From assembly GCA_965223155.1 (NCBI GenBank), contig CBDCVR010000013.1, positions 1,152,001-1,216,000 on the forward strand: a DNA stretch of 64,000 nt, written 5' to 3'. Source of the DNA: Candidatus Multivoradales bacterium (GTDB taxonomy: Bacteria > Acidobacteriota > Thermoanaerobaculia > Multivoradales > JAHEKO01). The position numbers and the translations under genes are program-made. Below the pieces are notes generated by a model. It saw nothing but the letters and a program-made list of their open reading frames with translations, had not been told where the DNA came from and ran no database searches. This document shows, one piece after another, positions 12,418-28,474 of the stretch (positions are counted from its first letter, which is position 1; each line of letters starts with the position of its first letter).

Positions 12418-14841
<2,424 letters not shown>

Positions 14842-14893
14842 ATCTTGGAATTTTCCCTTGGAGCCGGCGCGCCAAACGCGCCTGAAGGAGATT

Positions 14894-16129
14894 CTAAACT
14901 GCCTGTTTGAGAGGTGTGGGCTGGGACCGGTTGAGAACCGTCTCCTCGGTGATCACCACTTCGGAGATGTCCTCCTGTGAGGGGATAGTGTACATCAGAT
15001 CCAGCATCAGCTCTTCGAGAATGATGCGCAGTCCACGGGCCCCGACGTTGCGCTTCTGCGCTTCGCTGGCGACCGCCGTGAGCGCGTCCTCGGTGAACTT
15101 CAACTCGACGTCCTCGAGCTCGAACATCGTCTGGTACTGGCGCACCAGGCTGTTCTTGGGCTCCTGGAGGATCCGCACCAGATCTTCCTCGGTCAGCTCG
15201 TTCAAGGTCGAGATCACCGGCAACCGGCCGACGAACTCGGGGATCAAGCCAAACTTGATCAGGTCCTCGGGAGCCACGTGCTCGAGCAACTTGCCCGAGC
15301 GCCGCTCGCGCTCGGTTTTGACCTCGGCGCCGAAGCCCAGCGACTTCTCGTTCAACCGGTTGGCGATCTGCTGATCCAGGCCCACGAAGGCGCCGCCGCA
15401 GATGAACAGGATGTTGGTCGTGTCGATCTGCAGGAACTCCTGGTGGGGGTGCTTGCGACCGCCCTGAGGCGGCACGTTGCACTGCGTGCCCTCCAGGATC
15501 TTGAGCAACGCCTGCTGCACGCCTTCGCCGGAAACGTCGCGCGTGATCGACGGGTTGTCGCCCTTGCGCGCGATCTTGTCGACCTCGTCGATGTAGACGA
15601 TGCCGCGCTGCGTCTTTTCCTTGTCGTTGCCGGAGGCCTGGTAGAGCTTGAGGATGATGTTCTCGACGTCCTCACCAACGTAGCCGGCCTCGGTCAACGT
15701 GGTGGCGTCGGCGATGGTGAACGGCACCGAAAGGAGGCGTGCCAGCGTCTGGGCCAGCAGCGTCTTGCCGGTTCCGGTGGGGCCGATCAGCAGAATATTG
15801 GACTTCTGCAGCTCCACGTCACCGCGGGCCTTCTCGGCGAACTCGATACGCTTGTAGTGGTTGTAGACCGCGACCGCCAGTTTCTTCTTGGCCAAGCCCT
15901 GGCCGATCACGTAGTCCTCGAGAAACGCCTTGATCTCCTTGGGCTTGGGCAGCTCGGCTTCGTGCTGCTGCTCGATCATCCGATCCTCGGCGATGATGTC
16001 GAGGCAGATGTCGACGCACTCGTCGCAAATGAAGACGGTGGGGCCGGCGATCAGCTTCTTGACCTCGCGCTGGCTCTTGTTGCAGAACGAGCACCTCAGC
16101 GCTTCGTCGCCATTCTCTTTCCTGGACAT
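14894..16129 (-). CDS. clpX: Clp protease ATP-binding subunit ClpX
   Basis: CSFC...CDEC zinc domain, [26 protein letters not shown] loop. Confidence 0.98.
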
Positions 16130-18604: not shown

Positions 18605-19429
18605 CTAGTGGAAGGTCACGAGCGGCGACTCGGATCTCGTCCCGGGAGGCGCGTGCCGTTCCGGTCCGGGACACCCCCAGGAGCGCAGATGGCAGATCGA
18701 GCACTCGGCGCTGGGCAGCCCGGCCCGCAGCTCGTCGGTCCGCACCACCACGACCGCGTCCGGTTCCTCGGTCAGGTAGTGGCATTCCTTGAGCCGGGCC
18801 AGGATCCGGGACAGCGTCTCGGGCTGGATCGAAAGATGCGAAGCCAGCGTGGCCTTCGGTACCGCCAGCTTGATCCTCTGAAGACCCGAGCCGCCCCCTG
18901 CCTTCTCGAGCAGATAGGCCATGACGCGCTGGGTGGCGTCGTGCAGGGTCAGCTTCTCGATGTGGTCCAGGAGCATCTGCTGGCGCCGATGGAAGGTCGA
19001 GGCCAGCCGCAGGCACAAGAGGCTCGAATCTTCCAGAAAGGACCGGAACGGCGCTCGCTCGAGGCTCAGGAGATGCGCCTCGCCCACCGCGCGGGCGTTG
19101 AGGTCGTGCCGGGGCGCTTCCAGGATCAAGGTCTCCTCGCCGAAGACCTCATCCTCTCCGACCAAAGCGACAATCGACTCACGGCCGTCGGCCGACTGCC
19201 GGAACAGAGCGATCTGGCCGCTCCGGACGACGAAGAACCGGTCCGCGGCCTCGCCCTGGTGGTAGAGCCAGCGGCCCGATTCCAGGCGCACCGTGCGCGC
19301 GCCGGCCAGGATCCGTTGGATCTCGTCCTCGTCCAGGCCCTCGAAAAGATAGAGCTGCCGCAGGTACTCCGGCAACCGCTCGCGGCATTCCAGAGCTAGG
19401 ACGGGATCGTCTGCGCAGGCGCGGCACAT
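18605..19429 (-). CDS. Crp/Fnr-family transcriptional regulator with Cys-rich termini
   Basis: cNMP-like domain (LYHQGE, VFGEE), ATQRVMAYLL, HTH with QPETLSRIL. N-terminal CRAC, C-terminal CSICH-x5-C. Confidence 0.88.
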   Translation of the reverse strand: MCRACADDPVLALECRERLPEYLRQLYLFEGLDEDEIQRILAGARTVRLESGRWLYHQGEAADRFFVVRSGQIALFRQSADGRESIVALVGEDEVFGEETLILEAPRHDLNARAVGEAHLLSLERAPFRSFLEDSSLLCLRLASTFHRRQQMLLDHIEKLTLHDATQRVMAYLLEKAGGGSGLQRIKLAVPKATLASHLSIQPETLSRILARLKECHYLTEEPDAVVVVRTDELRAGLPSAECSICHLRSWGCPGPERHAPPGTRSESPLVTFH

Positions 19430-23011: not shown

Positions 23012-24283
23012 TTAGGCTTCGGGCTCTGCGTAGCAGAACAGATGGCCGCGCGTCCGAACCAGCAGGCAGCCGTCGGCGATCGCCGGAGACGCCACCAGGT
23101 CGCTGTCCGGAACCTTACTCTCGCCCAGCAGCTCGAATTCGTCGGTAGCGGCGACGGTCGTAACCACTCCTTCCCGGCTCATCGCGTAGAGCTTGCCGTC
23201 GCCCGCCACGAGCGAGGCGATGTAGTTGCCGGACTTGATGCGATTCTTCCACAGGACCCTGCCGGTGGCGGGATCCAGGCTCACGATGAAGCCTTTCTCG
23301 TGCAGCGAGAACAGGCGACCGTTGTAGAGAACCGGGGACGAGGTTCCTGGAACCATCCGTGCCGAGCTCCAGAGCGGCGCACCCGCTTCCCCGGCGCCCG
23401 GTCCCACCTTCCAGCAATTGGCTTCGCGTACCTGATGAGCGCCGGTCGTGGAGCAGATGAGCTCGCCTTCGCCCACCGGGCTTGCCACCGGCTGGTTGAC
23501 CTTCTGCGGAGTCTCCCAGCGCTTCTCCCCGGTCGCGGCATCGTAGACCGCGAGGTGCCCCGAGTGGGACACCACCAGCTCGGAGCTCTCGCCGGAGGAA
23601 CGAACGATCGGGGTCGCGTACGAACAGCACCCGGTGCTCCATTCCGTTCTCCAGAGCTCCTCGCCGCTCTTCTTCGAATAAGCGGCCAGGAAGCCGGGGT
23701 AGCCGTCCCGGTTCCTCTCGCGATCGCGGAAGACGATCACCTTGTCGTCGACGAGAATCGGCGAAGCGCCGGCGCCGTACCGCGAGTACTCCACGTAATC
23801 CGGGTCGATCTCCTCCAGCCACCGGATCGCGCCCTCGAAATCCAGCGCGGCCAGATGGGAGCCAAAGTACACGAAGATGTCGTGGCCGTCGCTGGCCGGC
23901 GTCGTTCCGGCCGAACTGTGCAGTCGGTGCAGTTGCTCGACAGGTCGGCTCACGACGGCGGTCTGCCAGAGAGACTTCCCCGCGGTCAGGTCGAAGGCCG
24001 CCACCTTGAGATCGACGCCCGAGGCTTGCTTTTCCGCGAACGTGAGCAGAACCGTTCCGCGCGCCACGACCGGCGACGAGGTCCCACGGCCGGGCAGCTT
24101 CGTCTGCCACCTGAGAGCGTCTCCCGATTCGTCCCAAGCAGCCGGCAGCCTGGTCTCCGCGGAGACGCCGAGACCGCCCTGCCCACGCCATTGAGGCCAT
24201 TCGAGTGTCGGCTCCTGCCGAGCGCACGCCGGGCTCAGAGCCACCATCAAGACTACAAGCGCAATGCGATACCAGACTGTCAT
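23012..24283 (-). CDS. PQQ-like beta-propeller protein (BamB-like repeats), exported
   Basis: Signal/lipoprotein-like N-terminus, WPQWRG, repeated SSPV and D..TG...W blades. Confidence 0.85.
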   Translation of the reverse strand: MTVWYRIALVVLMVALSPACARQEPTLEWPQWRGQGGLGVSAETRLPAAWDESGDALRWQTKLPGRGTSSPVVARGTVLLTFAEKQASGVDLKVAAFDLTAGKSLWQTAVVSRPVEQLHRLHSSAGTTPASDGHDIFVYFGSHLAALDFEGAIRWLEEIDPDYVEYSRYGAGASPILVDDKVIVFRDRERNRDGYPGFLAAYSKKSGEELWRTEWSTGCCSYATPIVRSSGESSELVVSHSGHLAVYDAATGEKRWETPQKVNQPVASPVGEGELICSTTGAHQVREANCWKVGPGAGEAGAPLWSSARMVPGTSSPVLYNGRLFSLHEKGFIVSLDPATGRVLWKNRIKSGNYIASLVAGDGKLYAMSREGVVTTVAATDEFELLGESKVPDSDLVASPAIADGCLLVRTRGHLFCYAEPEA

Positions 24284-24731
24284 CTGTTTCCCTCCGGGAG
24301 TCGTCCGCTCCGAGGACCGCGGCCGGTCGGCCGCCGGTCGGCCGGATGTTTCGCTCGTGACTCAAGGCGCCGTCGAGTCGAAGAAAGCCGGTCTCGCCGG
24401 ATCCCGCCCGGCCGCCTCGGCGGGACAGTACCAGGATTTCGCCGCTCGGAGACCGGGTCGTCCACTTCGAAGGTCCAGAGCCTTCGCTTGACCGAGATCA
24501 AGGCGCAGCCCGCCGCGGCTTGCGTAGCCTTCGAGGGCGGCGGCGCTTCGGCGCGCTGTTTGGGCCCGTGCCCGCTCCAGATCCCAACGAACGACAATTG
24601 TCGATTCGACCATGAAGACTGCCAGCCTGCGCCGCCTCGGCCTCCCTGTGTCTACGCGCACGCGGGCTGCGATCGTGACTGGAGACAGGCTCCCGAGGCG
24701 AGGTGCGACCGAGACTGCGGCAACGGAAAGG

Positions 24732-27170
24732 ATGACACTAGCTCGAAGAACGCTAACGGCTCTTGCGGTCACGGCCGCCTTTTCTTGGAATCCGGCCCCG
24801 CTCGAAGCCTCGGCTCCCGGTGCAACGCCCGAACCGGCCACCCGATTCGCCAGCGAAGCGGCCAGGCCGGCCTCCGCTCCTCAGTCCCAGATCAGGCCCG
24901 AAACCAAGTCGGAGTTGGCCGCGGAGGAACCGGCGCCGCGGTCCGGGACTCCAGCGATCGAGACTTCGCCGGCCGCAGCTTCGGCGGCCGGCGCTTCACG
25001 GACCGAGACCTTCTCAGCCGGCGGCACCGACGCCGAGCCGGAGCGCCTCTTCGAAGAACTCCTGGTCATCGGCTCCGCCGAAGCCGCCCGGCACATACCC
25101 GGCTCGGCCCATTTCCTCTCCAAAGAGGCGGTCGAGCGCCAGGAGTACTCGGACGTCCACCGGGTCCTGCGACAAATCCCGGGCGTCAACATCCAAGAGG
25201 AAGAAGGCTACGGACTGCGGCCCAACATCGGGATCCGGGGCACCGGAGTCAATCGCAGCGAGAAGATCACCTTGATGGAAGACGGGGTCCTGATCGCTCC
25301 GGCACCCTACTCCGCTCCAGCCGCCTACTACGCACCCACCGCCGGCCGCATGGAGAGCTTCGAGATCCGCAAGGGCTCGACCTCCATCCGCCAGGGTCCG
25401 TACACGAACGGCGGCACGGTGAACTACGTCTCGACCGCCATCCCGGGAGCCCTGCGAGCCAAGGCCGAGCTGGCAGCCGGCGGCGAGGGTCTGCGCCGGG
25501 CCGCCGCCTGGGTGGGCGATTCGGGCGAGCGCTGGGGCTGGCTTTTCGAGACCTTCCAGCTCGAGACCGACGGTTTCAAGCGTCTGGACGGCGGCGGCAA
25601 CACCGGCGTTGACTTGGAGGACTACGTCGGCAAGCTGCGGTTCACGAGCGCGCCCTCGGCCCGCATCTACCAAGCGGTCGAGGTCAAGCTCGGCTCGACG
25701 GATCAGCTCGGCCAGGAAACCTATCTGGGCCTCACCGCGGACGACTTTCGGGCCGATCCGTACCGGCGCTACGCCGCCTCCCAGGGCGATCACATCGAAT
25801 CGGATCATCAGCAGTTCCAGGTGAGCTACTTCGCCCAGCCGGCCGACCGTTTCAGTCTGACGGCGACCGCCTACCGCAACGACTTCTTCCGCAACTGGTT
25901 CAAGCTCGAACGCGTCTCGGACGTCTCGATTGCCACCGTCCTCGAACAGCCGGCCGACCATCCCCGCGAGCTCGCCATCCTGCGTGGCGAGATCGACAGC
26001 CAACCGGGCGAGCTGCGGGTTCGCAACAACCGGCGGGACTACTACTCCGAAGGAATCCAGGCCGTTCTCGAATGGCAGCTAGGACCGGCCGAGGCGCGGC
26101 ACGACCTGGACGTCGGCGTCCGCTTCCACCGGGACGGGGAGGATCGTTTCCAGGAAGAGGATCGTTTCCAGATGCTCGGCGGCCGGCGGACCCTGACCGC
26201 GCTGGGCGACCCGGGCAGCAACGCCAACCGCATCGCCTCGGCCCAAGCCTGGGCCGTCTTCGTCCAGGACACCATCGCCCGCGGGCGCTGGACCTGGAGT
26301 CCGGGCCTGCGCGTCGAATCGATCGATCTCGAGCGCCAGGACTTCGGGCGCGCGGATCCCGACCGGTCCGGCACCGATCTGGCCCTGCGCGCCAACGCGA
26401 TCACCGAGTGGATCCCGGGCCTGGGAGTGAACTTTCGGATCGACGAGCGCACCAGCCTCTTCGGGGGACTGCATCGCGGTTTCTCACCCCCGAGCCCCAG
26501 CTCGACCCGGGACGTGCGCGCTGAAGAGAGTCTCAATTTCGAGCTGGGCTGGCGCTTTCGCGACCACCGGCTGAGCGCCGAGGCGGTGGGGTTTTTCAAC
26601 GACTACGACAACCTCCTGGGCAACGACACCGTGGCCACCGGAGGCGAAGGCACCGGCGATCAGTTCAACGGCGGCAAGGTTCGGGTCCATGGACTCGAGG
26701 CCTCCGCGAGCTTCGACCTCGTCGCCGGCCGGACCCGCATGCCCCTCCGCATGGCCTACACCTGGACCCGCGGCGAGTTCCAGGAGAGCTTCGAGACCAG
26801 CTTCTCGGACTGGGCGCCCTTCGTGCGCAAAGGCGATGCCGTGCCCTACATTCCCGAGCACCAGCTCTTTGCCGGCATCAGCTTGGAGCGGGAGCGCTGG
26901 GCGGCCCATCTGGACGGCACCGTAACCGGCAAGATGCGGACTCGGGCGGGCTCGGGACCGGTTCCCGAGAGCGAATCGATCGGATCGCGAGCCGTCTTCG
27001 ATCTGCGAACCGAGTTCCGCGTCAACGACCGGATCCGCCTCTGGAGCCAGATCCTGAACCTGACCGACCACGTCTACGTCGCCGGCCGGCGGCCCGCCGG
27101 GCTGCGTCCGGGCCGGCCCCGCGCCCTCCTCTTCGGCGTCCGCTTCGACCTCGCCCGTGCCAACCGCTGA
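24732..27170 (+). CDS. TonB-dependent receptor, FecA-like (iron uptake)
   Basis: ATG at 24732 after GGAAAGGA. Signal peptide, plug EEEGYGLRPNIGIRG...ITLMEDGVLIAPAPYSAPAAYY, C-terminal NLTD..Y...RPAGLRPGRPR. Confidence 0.9.
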   Translation: MTLARRTLTALAVTAAFSWNPAPLEASAPGATPEPATRFASEAARPASAPQSQIRPETKSELAAEEPAPRSGTPAIETSPAAASAAGASRTETFSAGGTDAEPERLFEELLVIGSAEAARHIPGSAHFLSKEAVERQEYSDVHRVLRQIPGVNIQEEEGYGLRPNIGIRGTGVNRSEKITLMEDGVLIAPAPYSAPAAYYAPTAGRMESFEIRKGSTSIRQGPYTNGGTVNYVSTAIPGALRAKAELAAGGEGLRRAAAWVGDSGERWGWLFETFQLETDGFKRLDGGGNTGVDLEDYVGKLRFTSAPSARIYQAVEVKLGSTDQLGQETYLGLTADDFRADPYRRYAASQGDHIESDHQQFQVSYFAQPADRFSLTATAYRNDFFRNWFKLERVSDVSIATVLEQPADHPRELAILRGEIDSQPGELRVRNNRRDYYSEGIQAVLEWQLGPAEARHDLDVGVRFHRDGEDRFQEEDRFQMLGGRRTLTALGDPGSNANRIASAQAWAVFVQDTIARGRWTWSPGLRVESIDLERQDFGRADPDRSGTDLALRANAITEWIPGLGVNFRIDERTSLFGGLHRGFSPPSPSSTRDVRAEESLNFELGWRFRDHRLSAEAVGFFNDYDNLLGNDTVATGGEGTGDQFNGGKVRVHGLEASASFDLVAGRTRMPLRMAYTWTRGEFQESFETSFSDWAPFVRKGDAVPYIPEHQLFAGISLERERWAAHLDGTVTGKMRTRAGSGPVPESESIGSRAVFDLRTEFRVNDRIRLWSQILNLTDHVYVAGRRPAGLRPGRPRALLFGVRFDLARANR

Positions 27171-27180
27171 TGGCCGGCTG

Positions 27181-27384
27181 ATGGCCAAGAAGCTCAAGGC
27201 ATCCTGCTGCGAGAAGTTCCGGACCAAGGACAAGAACGCCTGCAAGCGCTGTCCGGCCCTGGCGCTGCTGCGCCGGCTCGAAGCCAACCGGCGGTCGGCT
27301 TCGGGCACTCGGGGCCGCCTGTCCGAGAAGAAACGACGCAAGCGCCTCAAGAAGGCGGCACGCAGCCTGCGCGAGGCGGCGTAG
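27181..27384 (+). CDS. Small basic Cys protein with FhuF-type CC-x10-CxxC motif (67 aa)
   Basis: MAKKLKASCCEKFRTKDKNACKRCP... Host-like codon usage, starts 10 nt after the receptor stop. Confidence 0.7.
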   Translation: MAKKLKASCCEKFRTKDKNACKRCPALALLRRLEANRRSASGTRGRLSEKKRRKRLKKAARSLREAA

Positions 27385-27512
27385 CGCCCGAAGGCCAGAA
27401 TCGGGCGCCCAGTACCCGGCGGCCGCAAACGCCGGCGAGACGGCGACGACCCGCTAGCGCGGCCGGGACTCTGCCGCGGTCTTGCGCCCGGCGAAGAGCA
27501 GCGTCAATCCAA

Positions 27513-27680
27513 CTAGTGCTGATTCCGGAAGAAGCTCACCGCCGCGCGCCGGGCCGTGGGCGTCACCATCTTCTTTGCAGCGCTTCTCTTCAACGCCTCC
27601 TTGCAAAGCGTCACATCCGCGAGCGCCGTCTTCAGTCGCCGATTCTCTTGCTTGAGCTCCTTCAACCGACGGGCCTCCCC
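27513..27680 (-). mobile_element. IS3-family transposase remnant (orfA end / orfB start)
   Basis: EARRLKELKQENRRLKTALADVTL (OrfA zipper) followed by KMVTPTARRAAV (OrfB start). Truncated on both sides. Confidence 0.75.
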
Positions 27681-27730
27681 AGTTGCTGGCACGCACGCCA
27701 ACCACCTTTTCGTTCGTCTAGAATGCTCGC

Positions 27731-28003
27731 GTGAACGTGTTGTCTGGCATTTTTATTGGCTGGTTCAACGACCCCTGGCTTGCCCGCCTTGGAATTCCAT
27801 TCATCTGGGGACTGATGTGGTGCGCCTACCAGTCGATCTTGGGCGGTTCGGAAAGCCACGCAGCCGAGATGGCTGCCCGAGGCGTCCAGGCGCCCCCAGG
27901 TGGGTACGCCTGGGCCTATTATCGAATTGAGTACTGGACAGCAGCACTCACAGCACTGATCTTCTCGATAGCTACCGGTGTCCTCAAATCTCTCATGAAT
28001 TGA
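27731..28003 (+). CDS. Hypothetical small membrane protein in lower-GC patch
   Basis: 90 aa with two hydrophobic segments and codon usage unlike flanking genes. Confidence 0.45.
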   Translation: MNVLSGIFIGWFNDPWLARLGIPFIWGLMWCAYQSILGGSESHAAEMAARGVQAPPGGYAWAYYRIEYWTAALTALIFSIATGVLKSLMN

Positions 28004-28114
28004 ATAGGGGCAGACGGACCACAGCTCCTCAAGCCAATACGGGCGAGAGCTCGATACCAACTCCTAGCCCAGTCTTCGACGGAGCAGTAAGCCGCTTGCT
28101 TTGAGAGAGTTATA

Positions 28115-28190
28115 TGGTGAGCCGCCAGGGACTCGAACCCCGAACCCGCAGATTAAGAGTCTGCTGCTCTGCCAGTTGAGCTAGCGGCCC
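28115..28190 (-). tRNA. tRNA-Lys (CTT)
   Basis: GGGCCGCTAGCTCAACTGGCAGAGCAGCAGACTCTTAATCTGCGGGTTCGGGGTTCGAGTCCCTGGCGGCTCACCA, 76 nt. Confidence 0.96.
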
Positions 28191-28225
28191 ACGAACGGCA
28201 AATTCTACACGCCCGAAGGTGGGGG

Positions 28226-28474
28226 TCAACCACCCTGGACGAAGCGGACGATCTCCAGCCGGTCGCCGGCCGCCAGCGGGATTTCCTCGAACCGGACGCG
28301 CCGCGCCAGCTCGCCGTTGTGCTCGATCGCGACCGTTCTGGGATCGAGGTCCAGGTCGGCCAGGAGCGAGGCGACCGTGGAGCCTGCCGGACAGTCGTGG
28401 TCCTCGCCGTTGACCTGGATCGTCATGGTCTCGGTGCGGCGCGTGTCAGCGATCGATGTCGTGTCCTCTGTCAT
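28226..28474 (-). CDS. thiS: Sulfur carrier protein ThiS (ubiquitin-like)
   Basis: IQVNGE...VAIEHNGE...GDRLEIVRFVQGG with C-terminal GG. True start may be slightly downstream. Confidence 0.85.
   Translation of the reverse strand: MTEDTTSIADTRRTETMTIQVNGEDHDCPAGSTVASLLADLDLDPRTVAIEHNGELARRVRFEEIPLAAGDRLEIVRFVQGG

Follow-up and report, generated by a model that had tools for sequence, protein, structure and literature searches.

Organization of the locus

The window, i.e. the whole 64-kb stretch of DNA that was analysed, harbours a small gene on the forward strand (27181..27384) coding for a protein of 67 residues, plus the stop codon; we call them the mini-gene and the mini-protein. The preliminary description had placed this ORF 10 nt after the stop of a receptor gene, and the ORF coordinates and translation bear this out: the TGA codon of the receptor gene is at 27168-27170, and the ATG of the mini-gene follows after a 10-nt gap. 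Residues 9-25 of the mini-protein read C9-C10-x10-C21-x2-C24-P25 (27205..27255, forward strand), and the Cys residues of this loop are putative metal or [2Fe-2S] ligands. The CC-x10-C-x2-C pattern occurs only once among the 127,996 residues of the six-frame translation of the window, and the form of the motif with a nine-residue first spacer is absent from them. Further downstream are a segment of 17 residues, R31-L47 (27271..27321, forward strand), and a basic tail, residues 48-67 (27322..27381, forward strand), which ends with -AA. This tail had been described as very basic, correctly so, as 25 of the 67 residues of the protein are Lys or Arg. AlphaFold2 predicts a helix for it (residues 49-66, pLDDT 87-89).

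The receptor gene (24612-27170, forward strand) is co-directional with the mini-gene and corresponds to an ORF of 852 aa with Plug (2.5e-11) and barrel (6.2e-41) domains. Its true start is probably an internal Met codon near 24732, ahead of a signal-peptide-like stretch. The protein had been called FecA-like; it is indeed a TonB-dependent receptor, but its resemblance to FecA is loose, with 110.4 bits for the NCBIfam FecA model as against a cut-off of 1100. Its best model is TonB-siderophore (115.6 bits, below the cut-off of 223.5), and it scores 32 bits with the TonB-copper model (cut-off 472). The mini-gene would be co-transcribed with the receptor gene, and possibly translationally coupled to it.

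A gene coding for a PQQ_2 beta-propeller protein, as identified with Pfam, is divergent from the receptor gene (23012..24283, reverse strand). Upstream of the presumed receptor–mini-gene operon, we found a palindrome of the FNR/CRP type, TTGAC-N4-ATCAA (24488..24501), the single exact site of this kind in the 64-kb window. The window also encodes a Cys-rich regulator of the Crp/Fnr family with cNMP_binding and HTH_Crp_2 domains (18605..19429, reverse strand). The genes of the Lon protease, ClpX and trigger factor (12418-16129, reverse strand), a few kb upstream, are ordinary housekeeping genes. On the other side, the GC content is 56-59% at 27500-28250, as compared with 65-72% in the flanks. 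This stretch, which separates the mini-gene from a tRNA gene (28118-28190, reverse strand) and in which no gene was recognised, may be what is left of an insertion at the tRNA. An ORF in this region (27513-27701, reverse strand) was considered as the remnant of an IS3-type transposase, a guess without Pfam support that we did not retain.

A family of small, basic proteins with a conserved Cys loop

Searches with the single sequence returned the query alone, both with phmmer against 1.84 billion representatives and with a word-index search. The family surfaced through six-frame searches of related genomes, followed by a profile search. The six-frame matches were weak and limited to the Cys region, and they corresponded to ORFs of 47-57 aa with the same architecture. 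A profile of seven sequences was then run against 5.8 billion sequences and matched 80 proteins at E<=0.01. None of the 80 has a Pfam domain, and they carry either no name or that of 'hypothetical' protein; similarly, the matches in the ESM Atlas were only unnamed clusters of hypothetical proteins. Where a source is named, it belongs to the Thermoanaerobaculia or to other Acidobacteriota, apart from one Opitutales MAG. A related-locus search with a narrowed alignment gave three loci only.

The typical family member has 47 residues, and Lys and Arg together make up on average 40% of the 80 sequences as against 5% for Asp and Glu. The C-terminus is AA in 50 of the 80 proteins, 36 of which end with KAA. 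The four Cys residues, on whose conservation in homologues the preliminary description had made its proposal depend, are kept in 78 of the 80; the full motif is missing from the other two because of a deletion in one and an N-terminal truncation in the other. The pattern is CC-x9-C-x2-C in 76 proteins, and the x10 spacing is found in two, namely the window protein and the Opitutales protein. The motif given in the preliminary description, exactly C-C-x10-C-x2-C, is therefore true of the window protein, but it is not the family norm. In an alignment of 74 sequences (the 80 minus four N-extended gene calls, the protein with the deletion and the truncated one), the only invariant columns are the four Cys and the Pro that follows the last of them. 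The orthologue of genome G001, found after the alignment, has a Ser in place of this Pro. According to the alignment, the window copy is a divergent member that differs from the 47-aa norm by one additional residue in the loop and by the 17-residue insertion R31-L47, which is lineage-specific. In pairwise comparisons of ten 47-aa genes, the differences at the three codon positions number 732, 606 and 969, i.e. they are mostly in the third position.

The mini-gene is present in 33 of the 201 genomes sampled from the order and in 10 of the 401 genomes of a phylum sample. The gene is thus accessory and patchily distributed, and a paralogue of a ribosomal protein was rejected for this reason. The precursor of a RiPP or of another secreted peptide was also considered and rejected, as there is no hydrophobic leader and no recurrent maturation enzyme is encoded nearby. 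Judged from these sequence comparisons, the mini-gene is a genuine gene whose product is a small cytoplasmic protein, a member of a family without a name. In the available excerpts of the literature on FhuF_C or FhuF-like proteins and on small Cys-rich proteins of Fur regulons, there is no description of a stand-alone protein of this kind.

We then modelled the window protein and a canonical 47-aa member with AlphaFold2. The model of the latter (mean pLDDT 80.1, with moderate values of 72-82 for the Cys loop) comprises a helix (residues 5-14) that includes the CC pair, a loop with the two other Cys residues, a short helix and a long basic helix (residues 29-46). The window protein was predicted with a mean pLDDT of 71.5 and values of 57-60 in the Cys loop. 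The predicted family architecture is therefore helix-loop-helix. Foldseek searches of the PDB returned nothing for either model, the best Z score of a wide VIA-align search was 3.6, which corresponds to helical noise, and a profile search of the PDB sequences gave nothing at E<=10.

Resemblance of the Cys loop to FhuF C-termini

The preliminary description had called the Cys module FhuF-type. The Pfam model for FhuF_C (PF11575) does not match the window mini-protein at E<=1, nor does it match anything in the genome of the window at E<=10. A search of the 201 genomes of the order gave no match at any mini-gene in the 33 genomes that harbour one, and the two marginal matches that were obtained, neither of them at a mini-gene, are both in spurious frames. 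The sole NCBIfam match of the mini-protein is with TIGR03950, the model for siderophore ferric iron reductase, of which it covers the last 20 positions (E=0.02; model cut-off, 137.9 bits), and apart from this weak tail match Pfam and NCBIfam provide no name for it.

We next compared the profile of the family with FhuF using hhalign. With E. coli FhuF alone, the probability was 5.1%. We then assembled a set of ten FhuF C-termini from E. coli FhuF and nine plasmid-borne homologues, leaving out that of locus L134, whose frame ends early. Against this set, the probability was 48.5% (P 1.8e-4, 21 columns, score 22.8). Neither the 200 FhuF profiles nor the 200 family profiles with permuted columns that served as controls reached this score; their maxima were 16.9 and 18.8, respectively, with a mean near 8.9 and a standard deviation of 2.3. 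Because no permuted control attains the real score, the alignment indicates that the likeness of the loop to FhuF C-termini is specific in its arrangement and goes beyond composition. The spacing in the ten FhuF sequences is variable, with 10 or 11 residues in the first spacer and two or three in the second. A Tyr residue is found three residues past the CC pair in nine of them, and the last Cys is followed by Pro and then Leu or Val in seven; the mini-family has the same features. The signature common to both families is therefore CC-x-[KR]-Y...C-x2-C-P-[LV]. The FhuF-type label is thus partly supported: the loop aligns specifically with FhuF C-termini, and the Pfam model gives no match. A Cys motif of 21 columns is too short to tell homology from convergence, and the resemblance could be convergent.

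That the module stands alone, as proposed in the preliminary description, agrees with two further results: a search for longer relatives of 136-2000 aa, albeit a weak one, found none, and the N-terminal substrate-binding domain of FhuF (PF06276) is absent from the five mini-gene genomes G000, which is that of the window, G022, G048, G458 and G037. The latter result led us to reject a split FhuF in these five genomes. An excerpt of a preprint on FhuF presents vicinal Cys residues that bind different Fe atoms as a hallmark of this protein (bioRxiv 10.1101/2023.07.04.547673). The vicinal Cys residues of the mini-protein would suit a binuclear cluster more readily than a lone Zn ion.

Genomic context of the mini-genes

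To describe the genomic context, we used a set of 40 loci from 36 genomes, including the window. Genes were called with a simple codon-usage scorer, and the two nearest genes on each side were scanned against Pfam. A TonB-dependent receptor gene is located directly upstream of the mini-gene and on the same strand in nine of the 40 loci, six of them in the family of the window and three in two other families; one more locus is cut by the end of the contig. Orthologues of the window receptor with 60-63% identity are encoded at the same position in genomes G022, G025, G001 and G003, and G002 shows a partial match there (62% over 329 residues). The receptors of the two other families are only ~25% identical to that of the window.

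The receptor gene of G002 (L051, 3733-5001) appears truncated or rearranged, as its ORF of 423 aa contains the Plug domain only and gives split tblastn matches. The mini-gene behind this receptor gene is intact. In G001, a gene of the SCO1/SenC family according to Pfam (L056, 7588-8142) is located directly upstream of the orthologous receptor gene, which hints at copper and suggests that the substrate of the receptor need not be iron. In G003, we noticed by eye a similar stretch coding for a CxxxCP motif (L049, about 2070-2560).

Genes of Kelch/PQQ_2 propeller proteins are found at six of the 40 loci (the window, L050, L057, L062, L067 and L069), in different families. An ApbE gene is present further downstream in L062. 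Nramp genes are convergent with the mini-gene in four loci, all of one genus. The remaining loci have unrelated neighbours, e.g. genes for peptidases, GGDEF proteins or a helicase.

Bona fide fhuF genes occupy a similar position. On a plasmid of Rhizobium etli, fhuF starts 4 nt past the gene of a TonB-dependent siderophore receptor, and fhuF also adjoins receptor genes on plasmids of Pseudoalteromonas and Ancylobacter (the three fhuF-receptor loci being L129, L132 and L133).

Putative Fur-type operators in related lineages

We searched for palindromes upstream of the mini-genes. In two sister families of the order, the sequence TTGAGA-N5-TCTCAA, with at most one mismatch, is present upstream of the receptor–mini-gene operon in L050 and L057, and 44-156 nt upstream of the mini-gene itself in L055, L066, L070 and L071. 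Exact copies are rare: in four genomes of 7-10 Mb, we found 2, 3, 4 and 3 sites, as compared with 0, 0, 0 and 1 for a reversed-palindrome control. Three of the 12 exact sites are at mini-gene loci, and the others precede feoA or feoAB (two sites), TonB receptor genes (four sites at three loci), genes of SBP_bac_6-type periplasmic binding proteins (two sites) and ApbE (one site). One of the receptor sites is ~130 nt upstream of a fur-family gene, which itself precedes the receptor gene.

A second palindrome, WTGAAA-N5-TTTCAW, precedes the mini-gene by 35-54 nt in three genomes that belong to other classes. There are 2, 2 and 5 exact sites per genome, and none for the controls. Three of the six sites located away from the mini-genes precede FTR1, feoB and a TonB receptor gene, and the three others are uninformative. 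Loci with a palindrome of the TTGAGA type include L099-L110 (G048, G458, G512 and G037), and those with one of the WTGAAA type include L119-L127 (G228, G265 and G305).

Both palindromes show the 7-1-7 build known from Fur-family boxes, and they mark putative Fur-type iron regulons in Acidobacteriota. In these other lineages, the mini-gene would belong to such a regulon. Altogether, Fur-type operators were detected upstream in nine of the 40 loci, all outside the lineage of the window, and any of three operator types, including the FNR-type box, in 16. The other 24 loci have no recognisable operator, with the upstream DNA cut by the end of the contig in three of them. The link with iron genes put forward in the preliminary description has thus been strengthened, as receptor genes adjoin the mini-gene in nine of the 40 loci and relatives share candidate Fur-type operators with feoAB, FTR1, TonB receptor and fur genes. 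The candidate operators appear to be the strongest link of the mini-gene to iron, a stronger one than could be seen in the preliminary description.

The lineage of the window: FNR-type box, Crp/Fnr regulator and possible absence of Fur

The FNR-type box of the window is also found upstream of the receptor gene in G022 (L046), G003 (L049), G002 (L051) and G001 (L056). In G013 and G045 (L047 and L052), where there is no receptor gene, it is located 80-119 nt upstream of the mini-gene itself. The genome of the window contains nine exact sites of the TTGAC-N4-ATCAA type, seven of which are within called ORFs, one at the very end of an ORF.

The Crp/Fnr-family regulator encoded in the window is 60% identical to the one that adjoins the G002 locus, and such a regulator adjoins these loci in four genomes. 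It has conserved Cys clusters, C-x2-C-x9-C in its N-terminal part and C-x2-C-x5-C-P in its C-terminal part. An orthologue is present in eight of 41 genomes of the family, and the mini-gene was found in seven of those eight. This regulator is the probable reader of the FNR-type palindrome, and it may be a local Fe-S or redox regulator of the receptor operon.

We found no gene of the Fur family (PF01475) in the genome of the window, which is 98.7% complete, and no box of the TTGAGA type; no classical Fur box, TGATAAT-N-ATTATCA, is present near the locus at up to four mismatches. Among the eight mini-gene genomes of the family, two gave a Fur match, versus 26 of the 41 of the family sample; these genomes are kin, and the figures are an observation rather than a statistical test. 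The lineage of the window may be a clade devoid of Fur. An unpublished genome, G005, is included in these family-genome denominators, and no claim depends on it.

Possible function of the mini-protein

Tentatively, we favour the hypothesis that the mini-protein is a stand-alone, FhuF_C-like metal or [2Fe-2S] module of the response to iron limitation, which we consider a serious possibility, somewhat short of probable. We favour it because the gene is real, the Cys loop is the conserved core of the family, this loop is specifically FhuF-like, and both the position of the gene and the candidate operators point to iron. Two features of the context add to this: real fhuF genes are likewise found directly behind or next to TonB receptor genes, and the mini-gene follows receptor genes even in lineages whose receptors are only distantly similar. 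In the mechanism that we envisage, the CC-x9/10-C-x2-C-P loop would hold a cluster, most likely [2Fe-2S], with the vicinal Cys residues bridging two Fe atoms as in FhuF. The module would be made within the iron-limitation response; in several lineages it would be expressed behind a Fur-type operator, and in that of the window together with the TonB-dependent receptor, from an FNR-type box read by the Cys-rich Crp/Fnr regulator. Through its polybasic C-terminal helix, the module would attach to an anionic partner, where it would hand an electron over to imported Fe(III) or signal the Fe-S status. We infer the binding of a cluster, the redox role, the partner and the identity of the regulators.

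A number of observations count against this hypothesis. There is no Pfam FhuF_C match, the family norm is x9 rather than the x10 of FhuF, and the hhalign probability is below one half. As the substrate-binding domain of FhuF is missing, a reductase activity would lack a substrate site. A content of 40% Lys and Arg is unusual for an electron carrier, and it is typical of nucleic acid binders. In addition, no operator was recognised at 24 of the 40 loci, which also lack metal-transport genes in their vicinity, the genome of the window has no Fur-type box, and the SCO1/SenC gene beside the G001 receptor gene hints at copper. Lastly, the AlphaFold2 confidence is low over the Cys loop of the window protein.

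The mini-protein might instead be a regulator or chaperone of an iron-sparing response that binds nucleic acids, in the manner of FbpA, FbpB and FbpC. Its Cys4 motif would then form a knuckle around Zn or a labile Fe-S centre, with a structural or a sensing function, the polybasic helix would bind RNA or DNA, and the -AA end would make the protein short-lived. The composition of the family, rich in Lys and Arg and very poor in acidic residues, is in keeping with this, as are the long C-terminal helix, predicted with pLDDT values of 80-89, and the frequent AA or KAA ends. A C-terminal -AA is known as a protease tag, as in the ssrA/ClpXP system. Moreover, the presumed membership of the mini-gene relatives in a Fur-type regulon parallels the situation of FbpA, FbpB and FbpC, portrayed in an excerpt of a published article as small, basic and Fur-regulated (PMC10730256). 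Nevertheless, no nucleic-acid-binding family was identified with Pfam or NCBIfam, no structural match was obtained, the sole specific sequence similarity is with the cluster loop of FhuF, and a vicinal CC pair would be an unusual set of ligands for a single structural Zn ion. On balance, we regard such a regulator as possible but rather unlikely.

There is also a more speculative proposal. The 47-aa family would be the smallest natural [2Fe-2S] protein and a sensor of Fe-S status rather than an enzyme: its holo form would bind RNA, DNA or a regulator via the polycationic helix, and the apo form would be removed via -AA. Together with the Cys-rich Crp/Fnr regulator, it would take over iron sensing in the Thermoanaerobaculia clade for which we obtained no Fur match, and the resulting replacement circuit would control TonB-dependent uptake. 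We deem this full scenario improbable.

More doubtful still is a chaperone or buffer for a thiophilic metal, Cu(I), Zn or Mn/Fe(II), delivered by the adjacent transporter, with the CC...CxxC loop binding the ion directly. Cox17 has a vicinal-Cys Cu(I) site that is loosely comparable to this loop. The TonB receptor genes at nine loci and the Nramp genes at four, the latter in one genus, would suit this function, and so would the SCO1/SenC gene of G001 and the CxxxCP-coding stretch seen by eye in G003. However, the candidate operators also precede feoAB, FTR1 and fur, rather than copper or zinc genes, the receptor scores far below the cut-off of the TonB-copper model, the Nramp genes converge on the mini-gene and are not co-transcribed with it, and a strongly cationic protein would be a poor buffer for cations. 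Finally, it is extremely improbable that the mini-gene is an ORF by mere chance, or a short trailer ORF that is translated only for the sake of the expression or termination of the receptor mRNA: the 10-nt gap holds no clear Shine-Dalgarno sequence and the purifying signal is weak, but length, frame, the four Cys and basic character are kept across the 80 proteins, from several phyla, and the gene also occurs without any receptor gene, with its own operator 35-156 nt upstream.

If, as we tentatively propose, the loop of the FhuF_C-like module binds a [2Fe-2S] cluster, the vicinal-Cys cluster site of FhuF can exist as an autonomous module of ~20 residues, which would provide a minimal model for FhuF-type coordination chemistry. 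The family would then represent small iron-response proteins of a new class, overlooked by annotation pipelines in Acidobacteriota and in other phyla. The comparative analysis also yields candidate Fur operators for uncultured lineages, and it draws attention to a clade in which we detected no Fur gene and in which, instead, the receptor operon is accompanied by a Cys-rich Crp/Fnr regulator.

Comparison with known systems

The mini-protein resembles FhuF, and ferric-siderophore reductases (FSR) more generally, in the vicinal CC pair followed by C-x2-C, with CC-x-[KR]-Y and C-P-[LV] in both. The two also have in common a gene directly behind that of a TonB receptor. Regulation by iron of the Fur type is documented for FhuF in an excerpt of a published article (PMC8068687), and it is presumed for the relatives of the mini-gene. 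In contrast with FhuF, which has ~260 residues, the mini-protein has 47-67, lacks the FhuF N-domain and is below the detection threshold of Pfam. Its loop usually has the x9 spacing, whereas that of FhuF is x10 or x11, and it has an additional polybasic helix that is absent from FhuF.

A second comparison, based on published descriptions, is with FbpA, FbpB and FbpC of Bacillus subtilis. The Fbp proteins are not known to have a Cys4 motif. They are reported, in the excerpt cited above, to be very basic proteins of 29-54 aa that are Fur-regulated and take part in the iron-limitation response (PMC10730256). Thus, small size and basic character are common to both, and membership in a Fur regulon would be shared by the relatives of the mini-gene only. 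In contrast with the role that we envisage for the mini-protein, the one proposed for the Fbp proteins is that of RNA chaperones and does not involve a metal centre.

The third system is Bfd (Fer2_BFD), a stand-alone [2Fe-2S] protein of ~60-70 aa that belongs to the iron-starvation response and provides electrons for the mobilisation of iron. The Cys pattern of the mini-protein differs from that of Bfd, and there is no match with the Pfam Fer2_BFD model at E<=1. Given its conserved FhuF-like loop, the position of its gene behind that of a TonB-dependent receptor and, in relatives, candidate operators in common with iron-uptake genes, the mini-protein may well be a stand-alone iron-sulfur module and a new kind of iron-uptake accessory.
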